From NCBI RefSeq assembly GCF_058153355.1, contig NZ_CM177019.1: a DNA stretch of 64,000 bases; one strand, given 5' to 3'. Of this stretch, positions 2,068 through 47,305 are shown in pieces (within the stretch, counting starts at the first letter, position 1; every line of letters starts with the position of its first letter). The position numbers were made by a program, and so were the translations under genes. Under the pieces are notes generated by a model. That model had not been told where the DNA came from. It saw only the letters and a program-made list of their open reading frames with translations, and did no database searches.

Positions 2068-3479
2068 TGCGCGCTCCTTTTTCGCCGCGAAATAGCGACA
2101 TTTTGATGCGTATCGTTCGGCACTCTGGCAAAGACAAACGCCGGAAGGGCGATGATAAACGCCATGCTAAGCCAGGTGTACATAAAGACGGTTTGTGTGG
2201 TGCTGCTGTCTACACTGACATGCTGTGAACCAAAAAGCCCCAGCAACAGCCCGGCGATGGTGACGCCGATACTCATCGATAATTGCATAATCATCGACAG
2301 CAGGCTGTTGCCGCTGCTCGCCAGATTGTCTGGTAGATCTTTCAGCGTCAGGGTGTTCATGGAGGAGAAACGTGTCGAGTTGACCATTCCTTGTAAAAAC
2401 AGGACGAACGGCAAAACGTAGTACCAGCCCAGCAGAGCGGTAGTCATAAACAGCAGGGTGACCAGCGACAGGCCCAGCGTGGTCGCCACCAGTACCCGAC
2501 GGTAGCCAAAGCGATTCACCACCTGCACTACAATTCGCTTCATTCCCATGCTGCCGAGCACCATCGGGATCATCATCAGTCCGGCATGAAACGGTGAGAA
2601 GCCAAGGCCAATCTGTAAGAAAACCGGTGTCATAAAGGGCAACATGCCACTGCCGATACGTCCGGCAAAGCTCCCCGCCAGGCCCAGCGAAAAGGTACGA
2701 GTGCGGAACAGTTTCAGACTGAAAAGAGCGCGGTTGTTATTTCTGGCGTGCAGCAGATAAAGCACCAGTGCTACCACGCCAATTGCTGCCAGTCCGGCAA
2801 TCGCCAGCGGTGAAAGTCCCGTGCCTTTACTGCCATCCAGCGCCAGAGTTAATACCGCCATGCCAACCGCCAGCAATAAAAAGCCGGAGAGATCGAAGCG
2901 CCGCGTCTGCATGGTGTAGTTTGGCATTAACATCAGCGTGGCGATCGCACCGATAATCCCTACCGGTATGTTGATCAAAAAGATCCAATGCCAGGACGCG
3001 TATTCCACCAGCAGGCCGCCGAGCGCCGGACCCAATAGTGGGCCGACCTGACCGGGCAGCGTAACAAAGGTCATCGCCGCCATATATTGCTCGCGCGGTA
3101 CAATTTTCATCACCGTAAGCCTGCCGACCGGCACCATCATCGCGCCGCCAACGCCCTGTAACGCGCGTGCCAGCAACAGTTCGTTTAGCGTGGCAGAAAG
3201 CGCGCAAAACAGCGAACCGAGGGTAAACAGCACGATGGCGGTAAAGAAGATATTGCGTACGCCGACTTTGTCCGCCAGCCAGCCGCTGGCGGGCAGCATC
3301 ACCGCCACGGTCAGCACATAAGATACGATGACCATGTGCATATGTAGCGGACTTTCCCCAAGGCTTTGCGCCATTGAGGGAAGGGCGGTGTTTACGATGG
3401 TGGTGTCCAGCGACTGCATAAAGAAGCCGAAAGCCACAATCCACAATTGCCAGCGGGTGCTGTCGGGAAGATCTGTCAT
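2064..3479 (-). CDS. mdtD: MFS-family efflux transporter MdtD
   Basis: 471-aa highly hydrophobic ORF with many predicted TM helices; position between mdtC and baeS matches the mdtABCD-baeSR operon. Confidence 0.9.
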
Positions 3480-6557: not shown

Positions 6558-9500
6558 TTACGCCTCCTCTTCATGACGGACAAAGCGACTTTTGGTCCAC
6601 AATGCCAGGCGGTCGAATAGCAGATAAATCACAGGCGTGGTAAACAGCGTCAGCACCTGGCTAACAATCAGGCCGCCGACCATGCCGATGCCTAACGGAC
6701 GACGTAGTTCCGCGCCGACTCCGGTGCTCAACATCAGCGGCAGCGCGCCAAGCAGTGCCGCCAGAGTGGTCATCAGGATCGGACGAAAACGCAGCAAACA
6801 GGCCTGGTAAATTGCATCGCGCGGCGACATGCCTTGCTCGCGCTCGGCAGCCAGCGCGAAGTCGATCATCATGATGGCGTTTTTCTTCACAATACCGATC
6901 AGCAAAATAATGCCGATGATTGCGATCACATCCAGTTCGCTACCGGCAATCAGCAACGCCAGCAGTGCGCCAACACCTGCCGTTGGCAACGTCGAGAGAA
7001 TGGTGATCGGGTGAATAAAGCTCTCGTACAGAATGCCGAGCACGATGTACATCGCCACCACTGCCGCGACAATCAGCCAGACAGTGCTGCCCAATGCCGA
7101 CTGGAAGGCGAGGGGGCTACCCTGGAACTGCGTGGTGATATCCACCGGCAGATTCAGCGTCTTTTCGGTGTCCATAATCGCCTGCACCGCATCGCCCAGC
7201 GAATAGTTATCTGGCACGTTAAAGGAGATGGTCGTTACCGGGAACTGATCCAGATGGTTGATGGAGAGCGGCGCAAAACGCTGCTCAATTTTGGCAATTG
7301 AGCTTAGCGGCACCACGCCACCGTCGCTGCTGGTCAGGCGAATGGTATCCAGCGCCGCAAGCCCTGGGGTATTTTCGGTATTGTGCTCCAGCACCACGCG
7401 ATACTGGTTAGCCTGAGTATAAATGGTGGAAATCAGTCGCTGACCAAACGCGTTGTACAGGGCGTTATCGACGTCCGCCATGCTGATCCCCAGACGGCTG
7501 GCGCTGTCGCGATCAACATTGACATACGCCAGCAGCCCTTTGTCCTGCCAGTCACTGGAGACATCAGAAAGCTGTGGCAGCTGCTGGAGTTTTTCCACGA
7601 GTTGCGGAACCCAGGTGCTGAGCGCATCCAGCGATGTGGCCTGCAAGGTAAACTGGTACTGGGTGCGGCTGACCTGAGTATCAATCGTCAGGTCCTGCGT
7701 TGGTTGCAGGAAGAGATCGACGCCCGGCACTTTATCTACTGCTGTTTGCAAACGGGCGATGACTTTTTGCACCCGATCATCACGTTCATCCAACGGTTTG
7801 AGGTTGATCTGTAAACGCGCACTGTTCAGCGACGGGTTAGTGCCATCAACGCCAACAAATGAGGTCAGGCTTTGCACCGCCGGATCCTGCAATATCACGT
7901 CCGCGACCTGGCGTTGCCGCTGGGCCATATTGGCAAAGGAGCTGGATTGCGGTGCCTGCAAGGTGCCCTGAATAATGCCGTTGTCCTGTACCGGGAAGAA
8001 ACCTTTCGGAATGAACACCCACAATAGAACGCTCAGCAGCAGCGTGCTGAGCGCCACGCTTAAGGTCAGCCACGGATGATTCAGCACTTTCGCCAGTCCA
8101 CGACCATAGGCGGCAATTATCCTGTCGAACATTTTTTCCGAGGCCCGGGAGAAGCGGTTCTGTTTACGCAGCGACTCCTGGCTGAGCATCCGCGCGCACA
8201 TCATCGGTGTCAGGGTCAGCGACACCACGGCTGAGATCAAAATCGCTACCGCCAGGGTAATGGCAAATTCGCGGAACAGTCGCCCGACGATATCGCCCAT
8301 AAACAGCAGCGGGATCAGCACTGCAATCAGAGAGAAAGTCAGTGAGATAATGGTAAAACCGATTTCACCTGCGCCCTTGAGCGCCGCTGCCAGTGGTTTT
8401 TCGCCTTTTTCGATATAGCGGGAAATGTTTTCGATCACCACGATGGCGTCGTCGACAACGAATCCGGTGGCGATGGTTAACGCCATCAGCGTCAGGTTAT
8501 TGATTGAAAAATCGAGAAACACCATAACCGCAAAGGTGCCAATTAACGACAGCGGCACGGCGACGCCAGGAATGATAGTCGCCGGAATATTGCGCAAAAA
8601 AAGGTAGATAATCATGACTACCAGCGCGATAGCCATCATCAATTCAAACTGGGTATCGTTGACCGATGCGCGGATATTGGTGGTACGGTCAGAAAGTACC
8701 GTCACCTTCACCGATTTCGGCAGACTCTCGGTGAGCTGTGGCAGCATCTGCCGGATGCTGTCGGCGGTGGAGATAATGTTAGCACCAGGCTGGCGCTGAA
8801 CATTCATCACAATGGCCTGTTCTTTATTTGCCCACGCCCCAAGCCAGCTATTTTCTGCACCTTGCTCTACGGTTGCGACATCGCCCAGACGAATCGGCGC
8901 GCCGTTCTGGTAGGCAATAATTAGCTGGCGATACTCTTCGGCGGATTGCATCTGGTCGTTCGCGGAAAGGGTGACCGCGCGGGAAGGGCCGTCGAGGCTA
9001 CCTTTAGCCGAGTTAACGTTAGCGCCGGTAATGGCGGTGCGCACGGTTTCGCTGGTCAGGCCGAGGGCGGCAATCGCCTGGGCGTTAAGTTTGACGCGAA
9101 CAGCCGGACGCTGACCGCCGGAAAGCGTCACCAGCCCGACGCCGGAAATCTGCGAGATCTTCTGCGCGACGCGGGTTTCCACCATATCTTCCACTTGCGT
9201 CATCGGCATGGCGGTTGAGGTAACAGCGAGCGTCATGATCGGCGGATCTGCCGGGTTCACTTTGCTGTATACCGGAGGGTTAGGCAGATCGCTCGGCAAC
9301 AGGTTAGTGGCGGCGTTAATCGCGGCCTGCACTTCCTGCTCGGCGACATCCAGCGGCAATGTTAGCTGGAATTGCAAGGTGATAACTGACGCGCCGCCGG
9401 AACTTTGCGATGACATCTGTTTCAGGCCAGACATCTGCCCAAATTGGCGTTCGAGCGGCGCAGTAACGGCGGAGGTCATGACATCCGGGCTGGCACCTGG

Positions 9501-10998: not shown

Positions 10999-11159
10999 TG
11001 GAGGAATTATGAAACACTGTCGGGAATCGTCTGAATGACGGGCACTTTTGCGAGCACGCATCCAGTAATAACACAGGAAACTATTTTATCTACGCGTTAG
11101 CGATAGACTGCATTAAGGGCAAAAGGAGGTAGGCCGACGATTTCAGCGGGACGCTGAAA

Positions 11160-11297
11160 CGGGAAAGCCCCTCCCGAGGAAGGGGCCTTAAATAAGGAAA
11201 GGGTCATGATGAAGTGGATCATCATCGTGGTGCTCTTAGTCGTTAGCTACCCAGCTTACTAAGACTACCAGGGCGGGGGAAACCCCGCTCAACCCTC
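11160..11297 (-). ncRNA. sib: Predicted Sib-type antisense RNA (antitoxin) covering ibs copy 1; ends approximate
   Basis: Minus-strand promoter-like TTGACA (plus 11328-11333), 17-nt spacer, TATTTT (plus 11305-11310); minus-strand hairpin GCCCCTTCCTCGGGAGGGGC followed by a T-rich tract near 11165-11195 as terminator; transcript fully overlaps the ibs ORF. Confidence 0.45.
11206..11262 (+). CDS. ibs: Ibs-family type I toxin, 18 aa (MMKWIIIVVLLVVSYPAY), repeat copy 1
   Basis: Short hydrophobic ORF with an MMK start and PAY C-terminus, preceded by an AAGGAAAGGG Shine-Dalgarno-like sequence; matches the Ibs toxin pattern. Too short for the ORF track. Confidence 0.75.
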   Translation: MMKWIIIVVLLVVSYPAY

Positions 11298-11487
11298 ACT
11301 CCTGAAAATATGCCTTCACGGTCAGAATGTCAATCCGCAGGCTTTGCAGTCTGCGATCCTGCCAGCAAATATTCTTTGCGAGTCGTTACGCAATAATCAC
11401 AGATGAAACTATTTTATCTAAGCGTTAGCGATAGACTGCATTCAGGGCAAAAGGAGGTAGGCCGACGATTTCAGCGGGACGCTGAAA

Positions 11488-11625
11488 CGGGAAAGCCCCT
11501 CCCGAGGAAGGGGCCTTAAATAAGGAAAGGGTCATGATGAAGATACTCATCATCGTGGTGCTCTTAGTCATTAGCTTACCGGCTTACTAAGACTACCAGG
11601 GCGGGGGAAACCCCGCTCTACCCTC
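11488..11625 (-). ncRNA. sib: Predicted Sib-type antisense RNA covering ibs copy 2; ends approximate
   Basis: Same architecture as copy 1, shifted 328 bp; -10 element is TACTTT. Confidence 0.42.
11534..11590 (+). CDS. ibs: Ibs-family type I toxin, 18 aa (MMKILIIVVLLVISLPAY), repeat copy 2
   Basis: Same features as copy 1, exactly 328 bp downstream. Confidence 0.75.
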   Translation: MMKILIIVVLLVISLPAY

Positions 11626-11815
11626 ACTCCTGAAAGTATGCCTTCACAATCAGATTGTCAATCCGCAGGCTTTGTAGTCTGCGATCCTGCCAGCAAATAT
11701 TCTTTGCGAGACGTTACGCAATAATCACATGTGAAACTATTTTATCTGCAAGTTAGCGATAGACTGCTTGCATGGCGAAAGGAGGTAGGCCGCCGATTTC
11801 AGCGGGACGCTGAAA

Positions 11816-11953
11816 CGGGAAAGCCCCTCCCGAGGAAGGGGCCTTAAATAAGGAAAGGGTCATGATGAAGCTACTCATCATCGTGGTGCTCTTAGTTATT
11901 AGCTGGCCAGCTTACTAAGACTACCAGGGCGGGGGAAACCCCGCTCTACCCTC
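11816..11953 (-). ncRNA. sib: Predicted Sib-type antisense RNA covering ibs copy 3; ends approximate
   Basis: Same architecture; TTGACA retained, -10 degenerate (TAACTT), so expression is less certain. Confidence 0.38.
11862..11918 (+). CDS. ibs: Ibs-family type I toxin, 18 aa (MMKLLIIVVLLVISWPAY), repeat copy 3
   Basis: Same features as copy 1, 656 bp downstream. Confidence 0.75.
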   Translation: MMKLLIIVVLLVISWPAY

Positions 11954-12135
11954 ACTCCTGAAGTTATGTTACTCCACCCTTATTGTCAATCTGTAAGTCC
12001 ACGTTCTTGCGGGGCGAATAGCAAAACCCTCTGCGCTTATGGGCCGAATTCTGAAAGTTGCTTTGCCTGCTCTTATTTCATTATTGCAGTCGGTATGATA
12101 CCGGACCTCAATAATTCTCTAAGAAAGGATTTCTT

Positions 12136-18573: not shown

Positions 18574-18576
18574 CGT

Positions 18577-18668
18577 TGGTCGCCGGATGCGGTGCGAGCG
18601 CCTTATCCGGCCTGGGGAATGAGCGATTTGTAGGCATGATAAGACGCGTTAGCGTCGCATCAGGCAAT
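18577..18668. repeat. REP/BIME palindromic elements after alkA
   Basis: Contains GCCGGATGCGG...CGCCTTATCCGGCC and GTAGGCATGATAAGACGCG...CGTCGCATCAGGCA, the canonical REP inverted pair. Confidence 0.7.
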
Positions 18669-18682
18669 GGGCAAACGCTCCC

Positions 18683-23653: not shown

Positions 23654-25507
23654 ATGAGACGATTTCTGACGACGCTGATGATACTCCTGGTCGTGCTGGT
23701 GGCCGGATTATCTGCGTTAGTGTTGCTGGTGAATCCGAATGATTTCCGCGACTATATGGTCAAGCAAGTTGCTGCACGTAGCGGTTATCAATTGCAGCTC
23801 GACGGGCCACTGCGTTGGCACGTCTGGCCGCAGCTTAGTATCCTCTCCGGGCGAATGTCTCTCACCGCCCAGGGCGCGACCCAGCCACTGGTTCGCGCCG
23901 ACAACATGCGCCTGGACGTGGCGCTTTTACCACTACTGAGTCATCAACTGAGCGTTAAGCAGGTGATGCTAAAAGGGGCAGTGATCCAACTGACGCCGCA
24001 GACGGAAGCGGTGCGCAGTGAAGACGCTCCGGTTGCACCTCGCGACAATACCTTGCCGGATCTGTCAGACGATCGCGGATGGTCGTTTGATATATCCAGT
24101 CTTAAGGTGGCGGACAGCGTTCTGGTGTTCCAGCATGAAGATGACGAGCAGGTGACAATCCGCAATATCCGCCTGCAAATGGAACAAGATCCCCAACATC
24201 GTGGCTCATTTGAGTTCTCCGGGCGGGTTAATCGCGATCAGCGCGATCTCACGATATCCCTTAACGGTACGGTAGATGCTTCTGATTATCCGCATGATTT
24301 AACGGCGGCTATTGAACAAATTAACTGGCAGTTGCAGGGTGCAGATTTACCAAAACAAGGTATTCAGGGGCAGGGGAGTTTCCAGGCCCAGTGGCAGGAG
24401 TCACATAAACGCCTTTCATTTAACCAAATTAGTTTGACCGCCAATGACAGTACGCTGAGCGGGCAAGCACAGGTTACGCTGACAGAGAAACCGGAATGGC
24501 AGCTGAGGCTGCAATTCCCGCAACTGAATCTTGACAACCTCATCCCGCTTAATGAAACCGCGAATGGTGAAAACGGTGCCGCGCAGCAGGGGCAGAGCCA
24601 ATCAACGTTGCCGCGCCCGGTTATTTCTTCGCGTATTGATGAACCGGCCTATCAGGGACTGCAAGGCTTTACGGCTGATATTTTGTTGCAGGCCAGTAAC
24701 GTGCGCTGGCGCGGAATGAATTTTACAGATGTTGCCACGCAAATGACCAACAAGTCGGGTCTGCTGGAAATTACTCAACTACAGGGCAAGCTTAACGGTG
24801 GACAGGTTTCACTGCCGGGCACGCTGGACGCGACATCAATAAATCCGCGGATAAACTTCCAGCCACGGCTGGAAAACGTTGAGATTGGTACCATTCTGAA
24901 GGCGTTTAACTATCCGATTTCGTTGACCGGAAAAATGTCACTGGCTGGTGATTTCTCCGGTGCTGACATAGATGCCGACGCATTCCGCCACAACTGGCAA
25001 GGACAGGCACATGTCGAAATGACCGACACGCGCATGGAAGGGATGAACTTCCAGCAGATGATTCAGCAAGCGGTAGAACGTAATGGTGGTGATGTGAAGG
25101 CCGCTGAAAACTTCGATAACGTAACGCGTCTTGACCGCTTTACCACCGATTTGACGTTGAAGGATGGCGTCGTGACGTTAAACGACATGCAAGGTCAATC
25201 GCCTGTGCTGGCGCTTACAGGGGAAGGCATGTTGAATCTGGCAGATCAAACCTGCGACACCCAGTTTGATATTCGGGTCGTGGGTGGCTGGAACGGGGAA
25301 AGCAAACTGATTGATTTCCTCAAAGAAACGCCAGTACCGCTGCGGGTTTATGGCAACTGGCAGCAACTCAATTACAGTCTGCAAGTGGATCAGTTACTGC
25401 GCAAACATCTACAGGACGAAGCGAAACGTCGCCTGAATGACTGGGCCGAGCGGAATAAAGATTCCCGCAATGGCAAAGATGTGAAGAAGTTGCTGGAGAA
25501 GATGTAG
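23654..25507 (+). CDS. asmA: Outer-membrane assembly protein AsmA
   Basis: 617-aa ORF with an N-terminal membrane anchor (MRRFLTTLMILLVVLVAGLSALVLLV) followed by a long Gln/Asn-rich soluble region typical of the AsmA family. Confidence 0.9.
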   Translation: MRRFLTTLMILLVVLVAGLSALVLLVNPNDFRDYMVKQVAARSGYQLQLDGPLRWHVWPQLSILSGRMSLTAQGATQPLVRADNMRLDVALLPLLSHQLSVKQVMLKGAVIQLTPQTEAVRSEDAPVAPRDNTLPDLSDDRGWSFDISSLKVADSVLVFQHEDDEQVTIRNIRLQMEQDPQHRGSFEFSGRVNRDQRDLTISLNGTVDASDYPHDLTAAIEQINWQLQGADLPKQGIQGQGSFQAQWQESHKRLSFNQISLTANDSTLSGQAQVTLTEKPEWQLRLQFPQLNLDNLIPLNETANGENGAAQQGQSQSTLPRPVISSRIDEPAYQGLQGFTADILLQASNVRWRGMNFTDVATQMTNKSGLLEITQLQGKLNGGQVSLPGTLDATSINPRINFQPRLENVEIGTILKAFNYPISLTGKMSLAGDFSGADIDADAFRHNWQGQAHVEMTDTRMEGMNFQQMIQQAVERNGGDVKAAENFDNVTRLDRFTTDLTLKDGVVTLNDMQGQSPVLALTGEGMLNLADQTCDTQFDIRVVGGWNGESKLIDFLKETPVPLRVYGNWQQLNYSLQVDQLLRKHLQDEAKRRLNDWAERNKDSRNGKDVKKLLEKM

Positions 25508-25523
25508 GTTACCAGGTGACCTG

Positions 25524-25566
25524 TCCTGTAGGCCTGATAAGACGCGTAAAGCGTCGCATCAGGCGT
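25524..25566. repeat. REP element after asmA
   Basis: GTAGGCCTGATAAGACGCGTAAAGCGTCGCATCAGGCG REP-type palindrome. Confidence 0.65.
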
Positions 25567-25958
25567 TCGCGGCGGCACCATTATATTCTGAATATGTAAG
25601 ATCGAAGGCTGTTCCGTTCACTTGATGTTCCTCGCTACTATGGAACGCTCAAGCCGGTGAACGTGCCAGGGTGGCTCAATCGCCACCACCCTGGCAACCC
25701 GGGCTCCCGGCGGTAAATCGCCGCTGGCGCGGTTCCCTCATCTTATTCCTTTCGGCTATCGGGTACGGGCGCGAGGTAACATCCCTGTAAAACGCGCCCT
25801 CAGCCCACATCCATGTGGGCTGCCCCGGCCTACAGGAAACGATTCGGCGATTTACAGCCGGACCCACACCCCCGCTGTAATGTCCATGTACCACAGACAA
25901 CGCTTCATTGCTGAAGTTATAAGGCGTCACGCAGCATCGGGTAAAATGACCGATACCA

Positions 25959-27542
25959 TCACACCTCGTACTCCATCTCGCCATCCTTACGCAGCGGTAT
26001 AATCTGCACCTTCTGCACGCGATGGCTTTCCACCTGCAACGTTTTAAGCAAATAATCCCCCACCTGAACTTCTTCGCCAGGTTTTGGAATACGCTGTAAA
26101 TATTCCATCAACAGCCCGGCAATGGTGTGATATTCACGTTTTTCATCCAGCGGCAGCGGCACATATTGCACCAGATCTTCCAGCGGCATATGACCATTCG
26201 CCGTCCAGGAACCGTCCGCATTCTTCTGAATATCATGGCGGGCGTCGATCTCTTCCACTTCGTTCGGTAAGTTACCGGCAATGGTTTCAGTGACGTCACT
26301 TAATGTCACAATCCCTTCCACCGAGCCAAACTCATCCACCACAAAAGCAAAGTGTGTGCGGGCATTACGGAACTGCTCCAGGGCAGGTAACAACGGCAAG
26401 GTTTCCGGGAACACCAGCGGCTGGCGAATCAACACCCGCAGGTTGAGCGGTTCGCCACGCAGTGACTGTTGTAGCAGGTCGATAACGTGAACAACACCGA
26501 GCAAATCTTCTGCGTCATCACCGTCGGTAACCACCAGCCGCGTATGCTGATTTCGCTCCAGCAACTGGCGGATCTCGTCTTCCGGCGCGTTGAGATCGAT
26601 ATGCTCAATATCGTGGCGCGACGTCATAATGCTGCTGACAGTACGCTGGTTAAGATTAAGTACCCGCTCAATCATCCGCCGTTCCTGCGGATTAAAGATC
26701 TGCTGGTTACCATGATCCACCAGCATGGACGCGGTTTCGGCGTCCAGTTCCGCATCTTCTTTTTGCCCGCTAAGCAGGCGCATTACCGCTTCGGTAGTCC
26801 GCTGGCGTAGCGTCTGGTTAGCGGAAAGAAAACGTCGCCGGTTAAAGATAGCCAACTGATTGAGCGCCTCGATCATCACCGAGAAACCAATGGCAGCGTA
26901 CAGGTAGCCTTTCGGAATGATGAAGCCGAAACCTTCTGCCACCAGGCTAAAGCCAATCATCAACAGGAAGCTTAAGCAGAGAATAACGATGGTCGGGTGA
27001 CTGTTAACAAATTGCGTTAACGGCTTGCTGGCCATCAACATCAGGCTGATAGCGATAACCACGGCGGCCATCATGACCAGTAAATGGTCGACCATCCCGA
27101 CGGCGGTAATCACTGAGTCGAGTGAGAAGATGGCGTCCAGTACCACAATTTGTGTCACCACCCCCCAGAACTTCGCACCTTTGCGTTGTGTGGGATTATT
27201 GCTGTCTTTCCCTTCCAGCCGTTCGTTCAGCTCCATCGTGGCTTTGAACAACAGGAAGAAACCACCAAACAGCATGATTAAGTCGCGGGCGCTAAAGGTA
27301 AACGAGCGGAAGCTGAACAGCGGTTGCGTCAGGGTGACCAGCCAGGAGATTGACGCCAGCAGTAACAGGCGCATTAACATCGCCAGCAACAGCCCGGTAA
27401 CCCGTGCGCGGTCGCGCTGCTTCGGCGGTAGTTTTTCGGCGAGGATGGCAATAAAGACCAGGTTATCAATGCCGAGGACCAGTTCGATCACAATCAGCGT
27501 GATTAACCCGGCCCAGATAGACGGATCGGCAATCCATTCCAT
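25959..27542 (-). CDS. yegH: Inner-membrane TerC-like / CBS-domain / CorC-HlyC protein YegH (UPF0053 family)
   Basis: Start at the internal ATG 27540-27542 ([34 protein letters not shown], the TerC-type GIDN motif), giving 527 aa; hydrophobic N-terminal half, soluble C-terminal half. Confidence 0.85.
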
Positions 27543-31954: not shown

Positions 31955-31969
31955 TGACGCCTGCATTCG

Positions 31970-32012
31970 CACCGCCCCGTAGGCCGGATAAGGCGCTCAC
32001 GCCGCATCCGGC
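31970..32012. repeat. REP element between wzc and wcaA
   Basis: GTAGGCCGGATAAGGCGCTCACGCCGCATCCGGCA REP-type palindrome. Confidence 0.6.
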
Positions 32013-32046
32013 AAGCAAACCAGCTCATAAGCCGGGAGAACAACCT

Positions 32047-42361: not shown

Positions 42362-42470
<109 letters not shown>

Positions 42471-42553
42471 GCGAAACCGCGGTGTAAATAACGACAAAAA
42501 TAAAATTGGCCGCTTCGGTCAGGGCCAACTATTGCCTGAAAAAGGGTAACGAC

Positions 42554-46949: not shown

Positions 46950-47255
46950 TCCGACAACGGTTGCCGGGTGCAGCGTAAAACGCCTTATCCGTCCTACGGT
47001 TCTGTGCTCGGGACCTGTAGGCCTGATAAGACGCGTCAGCGTCGCATCAGGCACTGAATGCCGGATGCGGCGTGAACGCCTTATCCGTCCTACGGTTCTG
47101 TGCTCGGGACCTGTAGGCCTGATAAGACGCGTCAGCGTCGCATCAGGCACTGAATGCCGGATGCGGCGTGAACGCCTTATCCGGCCTACGGTTCTGTGCT
47201 CGGGTCTTGTAGGCCTGATAAGACGCGCCAGCGTCGCATCAGGCAAAAAGCGGCA
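46950..47255. repeat. Tandem array of three ~97-bp REP/BIME units
   Basis: The block GCCGGATGCGGCGTGAACGCCTTATCCG(T/G)CCTACGGTTCTGTGCTCGGG...GTAGGCCTGATAAGACGCG(T/C)CAGCGTCGCATCAGGCA recurs three times. Confidence 0.85.
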
Positions 47256-47305
47256 ACGAAAAAAACAAACGCAGCCTCACCTGGCATCAAATTTATGAGG
47301 AAAAA

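Follow-up and report, generated by a model that had tools for sequence, protein, structure and literature searches.

The 451-bp spacer between the convergent genes asmA (23654–25507, plus strand) and yegH (25959–27542, minus strand) was analysed in a 64,000-nucleotide stretch of contig NZ_CM177019.1 from assembly GCF_058153355.1 (hereafter the window, meaning the whole stretch), which is Escherichia coli sequence with 100% identity to strain HKUOPY1. Judging from its sequence, the element found in this spacer at ~25590–25921 is a full-length, intact copy of an uncatalogued and diverged subfamily of the TRIP1 repeats, the family to which the Replication Risk Sequences (RRS) belong. It is placed, together with the proX-ygaY copy, in a separate subfamily because its outer helices differ from those of the known copies and because the asmA-yegH locus is not among the published ones.

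Identity and distribution of the asmA-yegH element

BLASTN comparison with E. coli K-12 aligned the element to TRIP1a with 85.7% identity over 189 nt (K-12 915040–915224; locus L039, 4040–4224) and to TRIP1c with 85.2% identity over 189 nt (K-12 2229181–2229365; locus L040, 3181–3365). Both matches fall inside the published coordinates of these repeats, which are 915016–915281 for TRIP1a (aqpZ-ybjE) and 2229122–2229394 for TRIP1c (yohI/dusC) (Li et al. 2024, PMC10888264). According to the same survey, TRIP1 repeats were first described, as novel, by Rudd in 1999, and the catalogued loci are five: aqpZ-ybjE, putP-ycdN (TRIP1b), yohI-yohG, alx-sstT and copA-ybaP, the last two holding newer types. 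The five types (a to e) are 84–94% identical to each other, have a GC content of 62–65% and form a very stable "double-Y" structure, TRIP1b being an internal-deletion form (PMC10888264). Neither asmA-yegH nor proX-ygaY is among the five loci of this 2024 survey (PMC10888264). The equation of TRIP1 with RRS was made by the RRS authors themselves, RRS-lysO being TRIP1a and RRS-dusC being TRIP1c (Pham et al. 2024, PMC10592627); as described there, the RRS consist of one 222-bp repeat close to lysO and another close to dusC, both at a distance of ~650 kb from dif and flanking the Ter macrodomain.

An initial annotation, made by a model from the letters of the sequence, had described positions 25570–25958 as a GC-rich, hairpin-bearing and non-coding stretch unlike the repetitive extragenic palindromes (REP), and this description held at the coordinates it gave: the GC content is 56.6% for 25570–25958 and 59.5% for 25590–25885, compared with 48.9% for the whole window. 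Its statement that the region matches nothing recognised was wrong, given the relation to TRIP1 and RRS and a further resemblance to the Rfam motif TwoAYGGAY that is taken up below. Of the checks that it had proposed, BLASTN, Rfam and folding resolved the case. The BLASTN search was carried out as a megablast of 25570–25958 against 5426 complete E. coli genomes, and revealed a dispersed repeat with matches in 5418 of them, at a median of three and a maximum of seven places per genome. The paralogues are intergenic and lie at proX-ygaY, aqpZ-lysO and dusC-yohP.

On the basis of BLAST and alignments, the part of the element that can be aligned across all subfamilies was delimited to 25590–25885, its folding, G-rich strand with the GGA loops being the minus strand, that is, the sense strand of yegH. 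An additional extension at 25886–25921, on the 5′ side of the minus strand and ending near ...GCTGAAGTTATA, emerged from the alignment of loci L012, L028 and L024 with the window, and is shared by the window and the flipped allele that other Escherichia clades carry at asmA-yegH. We use the names A for the subfamily of the asmA-yegH and proX-ygaY copies, B for classic TRIP1 and C for the Citrobacter copies. The window copy has in common with TRIP1 a homologous core (~85% identity over ~185 nt), a GC-rich composition, an intergenic position downstream of genes, the very stable "double-Y" fold, the occurrence of internal-deletion derivatives (compare TRIP1b) and a polymorphism of orientation. 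In contrast, the window and proX-ygaY copies carry CGTTCAC/GTGAACG in place of GCGCTCCTT/AAGGAGCGC and GGTGGC/GCCACC in place of GGCGGC/GCCGCC, together with ~35 nt of extra extension, and the GC content of the element core, ~60% (59.5–60.6%), is slightly under the published TRIP1 range. When single genomes, one for each species, were scanned with a sequence pattern, copies came to light in Kluyvera and in species of Escherichia and Citrobacter; gut metagenomes contained relatives as well. The RSA/BEE95 repeats (152 bp, six copies) were considered as a possible identity and dropped, Rudd having called TRIP1 novel.

The whole query is kept at asmA-yegH in only 1424 of the 5426 genomes, the core being lost in ~74%. 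In K-12-type alleles 178 bp are deleted between two copies of the 8-bp direct repeat ATCGGGTA, located in the window at 25758–25765 (left copy) and 25936–25943 (right copy), and a remnant is left at K-12 2139486–2139758. A second, independent deletion allele, identified by alignment in strain TUM13754, lacks 159 bp corresponding to 25707–25865, so that essentially the core enclosed by helix P1 (see below) is gone. By these alignments the window holds the intact form and K-12 the remnant, which is the opposite of the degraded remnant of an inserted element that the initial annotation had offered as an option for the window.

Fold and loop sequences of the G-rich strand

Folding of positions 25600–25900 gave a minimum free energy of −144.3 kcal/mol for the minus strand (z = −5.56), a stability reached by none of 100 shuffled sequences, compared with −122.2 kcal/mol (z = −3.95) for the plus strand, so that the folding check proposed in the initial annotation returned a strong fold. 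An RNAalifold consensus was derived from an alignment of 25 intact copies in minus-strand orientation. It comprises 67 pairs, and at 28 of these both partners have changed in a compensatory manner, compared with 1–5 such pairs in controls in which the partners were slid by 1–3 columns; likewise, 98.4% of the alignment cells are paired in the consensus and 38–46% in the slid controls. Pairs separated by 90–130 nt covary as well. In the resulting minus-strand layout, stems P1, P1b, P2, P3 and P4 enclose two GGA hairpins and are followed by P9, HP3 and HP4.

The 5′ arm of P1 (CGGCGATTTAC on the plus strand) occupies 25845–25855 and its 3′ arm (GTAAATCGCCG on the plus strand) 25713–25723, the latter adjoining the small hairpin P9 (25721–25732). 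Both arms were assigned from the consensus fold and its covariation, 25855–25848 being paired with ~25720–25713 and four of these eight pairs showing compensatory changes. GGA hairpin 1, CAGCCCAC AUGGAU GUGGGCUG, lies at 25801–25822 with five of nine pairs compensatory, and GGA hairpin 2, GGGCGCG-UUUUAC AGGGAU GUUACCU-CGCGCCC, at 25767–25799; their hexaloops, closed by C-G, are CAUGGAUG at ~25812 and CAGGGAUG at ~25784, respectively. HP3 (25665–25695; GCCAGGGTGG...CCACCCTGGC with the conserved loop GGCGATTG), in which five of seven pairs are compensatory, contains the sequence GGTGGCTCAATCGCCACC (25670–25687, a single occurrence in the window) and takes the position homologous to the G-quadruplex (G4) motif of the RRS. 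The terminal hairpin HP4 (25614–25664) consists of CGTTCAC/GTGAACG with a loop of ~36 nt, has four of eight pairs doubly compensatory, and is the place where subfamily B carries GCGCTCCTT/AAGGAGCGC. All of these features are on the minus strand.

The palindrome GCCCACATCCATGTGGGC that the initial annotation had located, exactly, at 25803–25820 sits inside GGA hairpin 1. It has 7-bp arms around a 4-nt centre and occurs once in the window; as ~4 palindromes with 7+7 arms are expected by chance in 64 kb, one alone is unremarkable, and its significance derives from conservation, because paralogues and other genera keep the same helices by compensatory changes. The covariation of its arms makes it unlikely that it is bound by a protein as duplex DNA, an option of the initial annotation.

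The same helices bear on the coding potential of the region. A 102-codon open reading frame (ORF) with an ATG start is present on the minus strand at 25676–25984, but that the region encodes this 102-aa protein has next to no chance of being correct: a Pfam search returned no family, in agreement with the lack of recognisable features noted at the outset, the ORF overlaps the yegH stop, it crosses covarying helices, paralogues differ by frame-breaking 1-nt indels, and the K-12 allele lacks most of it. The ORF was consequently judged spurious.

Conservation of the loops was assessed in two sets of homologues. The first had been chosen by a pattern inside hairpin 2, which makes its hairpin-2 conservation circular. 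An unbiased metagenome set was therefore collected with anchors outside both hairpins, yielding 97 unique cores, which are related sequences, so that the counts do not represent independent events. Both hexaloops were kept as CANGGANG (C.TCC.TG on the opposite strand) on the G-rich strand in 87 of the 97, with variation only at the N positions, and the stems were swapped wholesale (for instance CCUGCAGGGAUGCAGG, CCUACAUGGAUGUAGG or GUCACAGGGAUGUGAC); in hairpin 2 the loop was kept and the stem wholly changed. Of the ten exceptions, one carries a deletion and the others either an inserted module or insertion sequence (IS) or a loop changed by 1 nt. On the G-rich strand of the 87 cores, G·U/U·G pairs outnumbered A·C/C·A pairs by 69 to 8, and this strand was the more stable one in 84 of the 87, with a mean difference of 7.3 kcal/mol; applied to an initial group of 25 sequences, the same comparison did not discriminate between the strands, at 15 versus 10 once an alignment artefact had been removed. 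Moreover, several unpaired residues and both hexaloops are near-invariant across genera. Because of the G·U excess, the greater stability and the constancy of the loops despite stem replacement, we conclude that selection is directed at the single-stranded form of the G-rich strand and at the sequences of its loops.

A strand of this kind could act as RNA, and the Rfam scan proposed in the initial annotation produced one match in the region, to TwoAYGGAY (RF01731), no family reaching its gathering threshold. The match covers the full length of the model (minus strand, 25714–25857) with 31.5 bits and E = 0.014, below the gathering score of 43. Loop 1, AUGGAU, fits AYGGAY, loop 2, AGGGAU, has R for Y, and the enclosing stems P1–P4 are present and covarying; in some homologues from metagenomes both loops read AUGGAU. 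A homologue that was retrieved by TRIP1 anchors (L106) scored 44.6 bits, above the gathering score, and the element beside the Kluyvera copy (L020:2578–2641) 41.9 bits. There is thus a gradation from the TRIP1/RRS family to the orphan motif TwoAYGGAY, which was reportedly described by Weinberg et al. in 2010. Both have a pair of neighbouring hairpins that end in (A)NGGA(Y) loops and are enclosed by an outer stem, whereas the window element differs in its score below the threshold, in having only one strict AYGGAY loop and in its two further 3′ hairpins beyond the model. The CANGGANG hexaloop is one that we take to be an optimal CsrA/RsmE site; the consensus obtained for CsrA by in vitro selection (SELEX) is said to be RUACARGGAUGU (Dubey 2005), and hexaloop sites of RsmE have reportedly been described (Schubert 2007). 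TwoAYGGAY itself has been proposed as a CsrA-binding RNA (PMC4333381).

As an alternative, the minus strand, as the 3′ untranslated region (UTR) of yegH or as a processed RNA, would be a TwoAYGGAY-class RNA whose two ANGGAN loops, 28 nt apart, bind a CsrA dimer and thereby sequester it or regulate in cis. We consider this rather unlikely. The full-length model match, the passing score of the L106 homologue and that of the Kluyvera neighbour speak for it, as do the retention of both loops as CANGGANG in most of the homologues, in keeping with the CsrA/RsmE consensus, the excess of G·U over A·C pairs, the count of GGA, eight on the minus strand versus three on the plus strand, and the lack of a terminator separating the element from the yegH stop. 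However, folding of single-stranded DNA explains the strand asymmetry equally well, and in the K-12 CsrA tables from sequencing of crosslinked, immunoprecipitated RNA (CLIP-seq; PMC5694010), which cover one growth condition, neither a look-up by coordinates nor a search with the loop sequences of both strands returned a peak for TRIP1a or TRIP1c. The orientation relative to the neighbours also varies, with flipped alleles at three loci and the G-rich strand being antisense to aqpZ and lysO in K-12, and at asmA-yegH itself the core has been lost from most genomes. CsrB and CsrC likewise present GGA in CANGGANG-type hairpin hexaloops, but with ~9–22 loops as opposed to two, and the window element differs from them also in having no promoter or terminator of its own and K-12 paralogues without a CsrA CLIP-seq signal.

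A small RNA (sRNA), another option of the initial annotation, is possible, though no signals that would delimit an sRNA gene were predicted: neither a sigma-70-type promoter nor an intrinsic terminator was obtained on either strand of 25450–26050, and around K-12 TRIP1a and TRIP1c the only prediction lay outside the element, at chance level. An independent sRNA gene was rejected on this ground, hand-picked −10/−35 candidates being below the scan criteria and not conserved between copies. As no terminator occurs between the yegH stop and the element, the latter is probably transcribed, if at all, as yegH 3′ UTR. For this reason its inclusion in an annotated 3′ UTR, which the initial annotation had regarded as grounds for dismissal, would not be decisive.

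Rearrangements at TRIP1-family loci

Opposite orientations of the element between the same flanking genes, with diverged sequences, were observed at three loci. At dusC-yohP the K-12 allele is present in 3316 of the 5426 genomes and the rest of those sampled carry it flipped (L040 versus L005/L006); at aqpZ-lysO, K-12 (L039) and strain E69 (L018) are opposite in orientation, and at asmA-yegH the window is opposite to L012, L028 and L024. At two further loci K-12 holds other repeats where other strains carry a TRIP1-family copy, namely a BIME consisting of two REPs at proX-ygaY (L038:3126–3316) and BoxC-like GGGAGAGGG repeats at alx-sstT (L042:3047–3444). Neither of these two loci provided a clean empty site or a target-site duplication, the K-12 alleles there being filled by those other repeats. 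Repeat families were thus seen to alternate as "cassettes" in the same intergenic sites.

The element is also a target of insertions. In E. coli AF57 (L007:1116–2500; also in L072) an IS110-family element is inserted exactly in the hairpin-2 loop, as GAGGTAACAT–IS–ATCCTTGTAAGAC (window 25781–25786), with the core AT apparently duplicated; its transposase, of 341 aa with the domains DEDD_Tnp_IS110 and Transposase_20, is annotated as an "RNA-guided transposase". The IS–TRIP1 junction occurs in 174 of the 5426 genomes, and among the rows sampled every IS end had TRIP1 beside it. In addition, a hairpin-rich module of ~78 nt (AATATTCGGCCCATCCCTGGGCC...CAAAATTGCTCCCGGCAATTTTG) with a CAGGGAUG-type hairpin of its own is nested in TRIP1-like elements of various subfamilies and genera (L024:8612–8689; L015:1128–1205; L110, within 8400–8900, minus strand; L093, within 3050–3436, minus strand). 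It was found at two positions, always just 5′ of TCC, one of them being the hairpin-2 loop. TRIP1/TwoAYGGAY-like elements are often paired, frequently head-to-head, and the partner may be a shorter element with two hairpins and a better score in the TwoAYGGAY model (41.9 bits); pairs were recorded at L020:2578–2641 (Kluyvera), L053:9853–9914, the 3′ part of L110, L015:1417–1594, L058, L078 and L011. The ends of the elements show weak, imperfect inverted repeats near TA/TAT.

Taken together, these observations might be explained by a selfish, mobile or invertible element resembling a miniature inverted-repeat transposable element (MITE) without host function, the hairpins of which would be needed for propagation or be kept by template switching. 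Its occurrence in either orientation at three loci (also PMC10888264), the filling of sites without a copy by BIME or BoxC-like repeats, the inverted repeats at its ends, the nested module and the IS110-family insertions, the head-to-head pairs and the recurring internal deletions would all be in keeping with such an element. Nevertheless, we regard this explanation as doubtful. Neither a clean empty site nor a target-site duplication nor an associated transposase turned up, copies are few, and every variant is confined to its own locus (PMC10888264). Simple palindrome correction predicts neither the covarying pairs 90–130 nt apart nor the loops and unpaired residues kept across genera, and B-type copies have experimental phenotypes (PMC10592627).

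Other repeats are found nearby. A REP lies at 25531–25568, directly 3′ of the asmA stop (25507) and outside the TRIP1-like element, where the initial annotation had placed one; it corresponds to a partial match to the naRNA4/REP covariance model (33.1 bits), keeps its asmA-side place in the flipped-element allele L012 and belongs to the same sequence family as other REP copies. REP and BIME share with the TRIP1-like element the nature of GC-rich palindromic repeats, a 3′ intergenic location and the condition of IS110-family targets, IS621 being a member of this family that targets REP. They differ from it in that the element contains no REP consensus, is ~10 times longer, has a multi-branch fold and is present in very low copy number. 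Further REP/BIME copies were observed in the window at 18574–18669, 31969–32017 and 42375–42485, along with a tandem array of three 96-bp BIME units at 46979–47266, two of them 100% identical, and three tandem units of ~328 bp at 11047–12002 (83–91% identity over 300 aligned nt). In Citrobacter sp. FP75 (L010:3933–4080) a GlmY sRNA gene (146.8 bits) is situated ~330 nt from a TRIP1-like copy.

Relation to replication and likely role

The experimental background on function comes from the RRS of K-12 (PMC10592627). The strand of the RRS that forms the G4 is the lagging-strand template. In vitro, the RRS are barriers to Pol I, II and IV; they give rise to RecA- and SSB-loaded gaps as long as 2 kb, influence supercoiling genome-wide and are active at ectopic sites. 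Deletion of both is viable only with amplification of the insH7-insH8 segment or with an ectopic or inverted RRS. Two RecA/SSB peaks only were seen in K-12, and an engineered RRS whose G-rich strand was the leading-strand template gave no gap signal. The polymerase block and the lagging-strand gaps have been shown for B-type paralogues only, with the G-rich strand as the lagging-strand template (PMC10592627).

With regard to these properties, the window copy shares with the RRS its repeat family and a folding G-rich strand, but differs in several respects. The G4 motif GGGGGTGCAGGGGGCGGCGG, present on the G-rich strand of K-12 TRIP1a and TRIP1c, does not occur on either strand of the window, and the values of G4Hunter(25) reach a maximum of 1.28 in the element and 0.96 at the homologous site in HP3, compared with 1.84 in the RRS; across the family, the score at the HP3 site is ≥1.5 in 63 of 104 unique members and below this value in 41, and the HP3 hairpin covaries. 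The plus strand of the window has a GC skew of +0.036 and asmA runs in the direction of replication in K-12, and from this skew and synteny we infer that the G-rich minus strand serves as the leading-strand and not the lagging-strand template. Finally, when placed on K-12 coordinates the locus lies 89 kb from RRS-dusC (2229122), towards the terminus, with no symmetric partner about dif, and the core is deleted in most strains.

The explanation that we favour with reasonable confidence is that the asmA-yegH element is an intact copy of a diverged TRIP1/RRS subfamily with a conserved fold, and most likely a dispensable paralogue that acts as a structured spacer and probably not as a trigger of gaps at this place. 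Its dispensability and its probable inactivity as a gap trigger are proposed because it carries no G4 motif, because its G-rich strand is placed on the leading-strand template and because the core has been lost in at least two independent deletions and is missing from some three quarters of the genomes. The G-rich strand, once single-stranded, folds into stems P1–P4 around the two CANGGANG hairpins, with two more hairpins after them; according to this model, the copy would persist as a very stable structured spacer or 3′ end between convergent asmA and yegH, and would serve as a substrate for deletion and possibly also for recombination and IS insertion. Its function at asmA-yegH is probably minor.

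Several points weigh against this dispensable-paralogue explanation. Weak G-tracts remain at the homologous site (GGG..GGG..GG..GG), so that some polymerase blockage is conceivable; inverted RRS still rescue viability (PMC10592627), and orientation may therefore not abolish function; and the direction of replication was taken from GC skew and K-12 synteny and not from mapped oriC and dif. Moreover, the near-invariance of the hexaloops and of several unpaired residues argues for sequence-specific recognition, which a structural spacer leaves unexplained, and for this reason recognition of the element by a protein or as RNA stays alive as a rival. The functional unit of TRIP1/RRS might be the covarying fold with its two CANGGANG hexaloops, a design like that of TwoAYGGAY and of the best CsrA/RsmE sites, instead of a G-quadruplex, acting through a transcript or a loop-specific protein, with cryptic paralogues, the asmA-yegH copy included, contributing. 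This would fit the rescue of viability by inverted RRS, although as a whole we hold it to be unlikely.

Whether the copy is a working RRS, which folds at replisome passage and stalls the polymerase so that a transient gap relieves topological stress near the terminus, has to be considered as well. The homology to RRS-lysO and RRS-dusC and the extremely stable fold on the same G-rich strand would support this role, but the copy lacks the G4 motif to which the RRS authors attribute the effect, with G4Hunter values below 1.5. The RRS function ectopically and the locus is on the terminus side of RRS-dusC, yet the leading-strand-template orientation yielded no RRS gap signal and the core is lost in most E. 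coli. The K-12 remnant lies between insH7 (2101749–2102943) and insH8 (2288919–2290113), in the segment amplified upon double RRS deletion. This interval also holds the dusC RRS site, and we consider the position of the remnant inside it a coincidence and not evidence. Only two RecA/SSB peaks were detected in K-12, although K-12 has just a remnant at asmA-yegH. A working RRS at this locus is, in our judgement, quite unlikely, and the dispensable paralogue is preferred.

TRIP1 was neglected for 25 years until, in 2023–24, two of its copies were reported as the RRS to be conditionally essential, gap-triggering and relevant to supercoiling (PMC10592627). At asmA-yegH the practical consequence is small: the element should be annotated as a TRIP1/RRS-like repeat, neither as an ORF nor as an unknown. 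K-12, the strain of all RRS genetics, carries an unnoticed remnant of it within the segment whose amplification makes the loss of both RRS viable. The catalogue understates the size and diversity of the family, to which intact, diverged members at asmA-yegH and proX-ygaY are added here along with relatives from Citrobacter, Kluyvera and the gut metagenomes, and what is conserved throughout it is the covarying fold with its two GGA hexaloops, more than the G4 motif.

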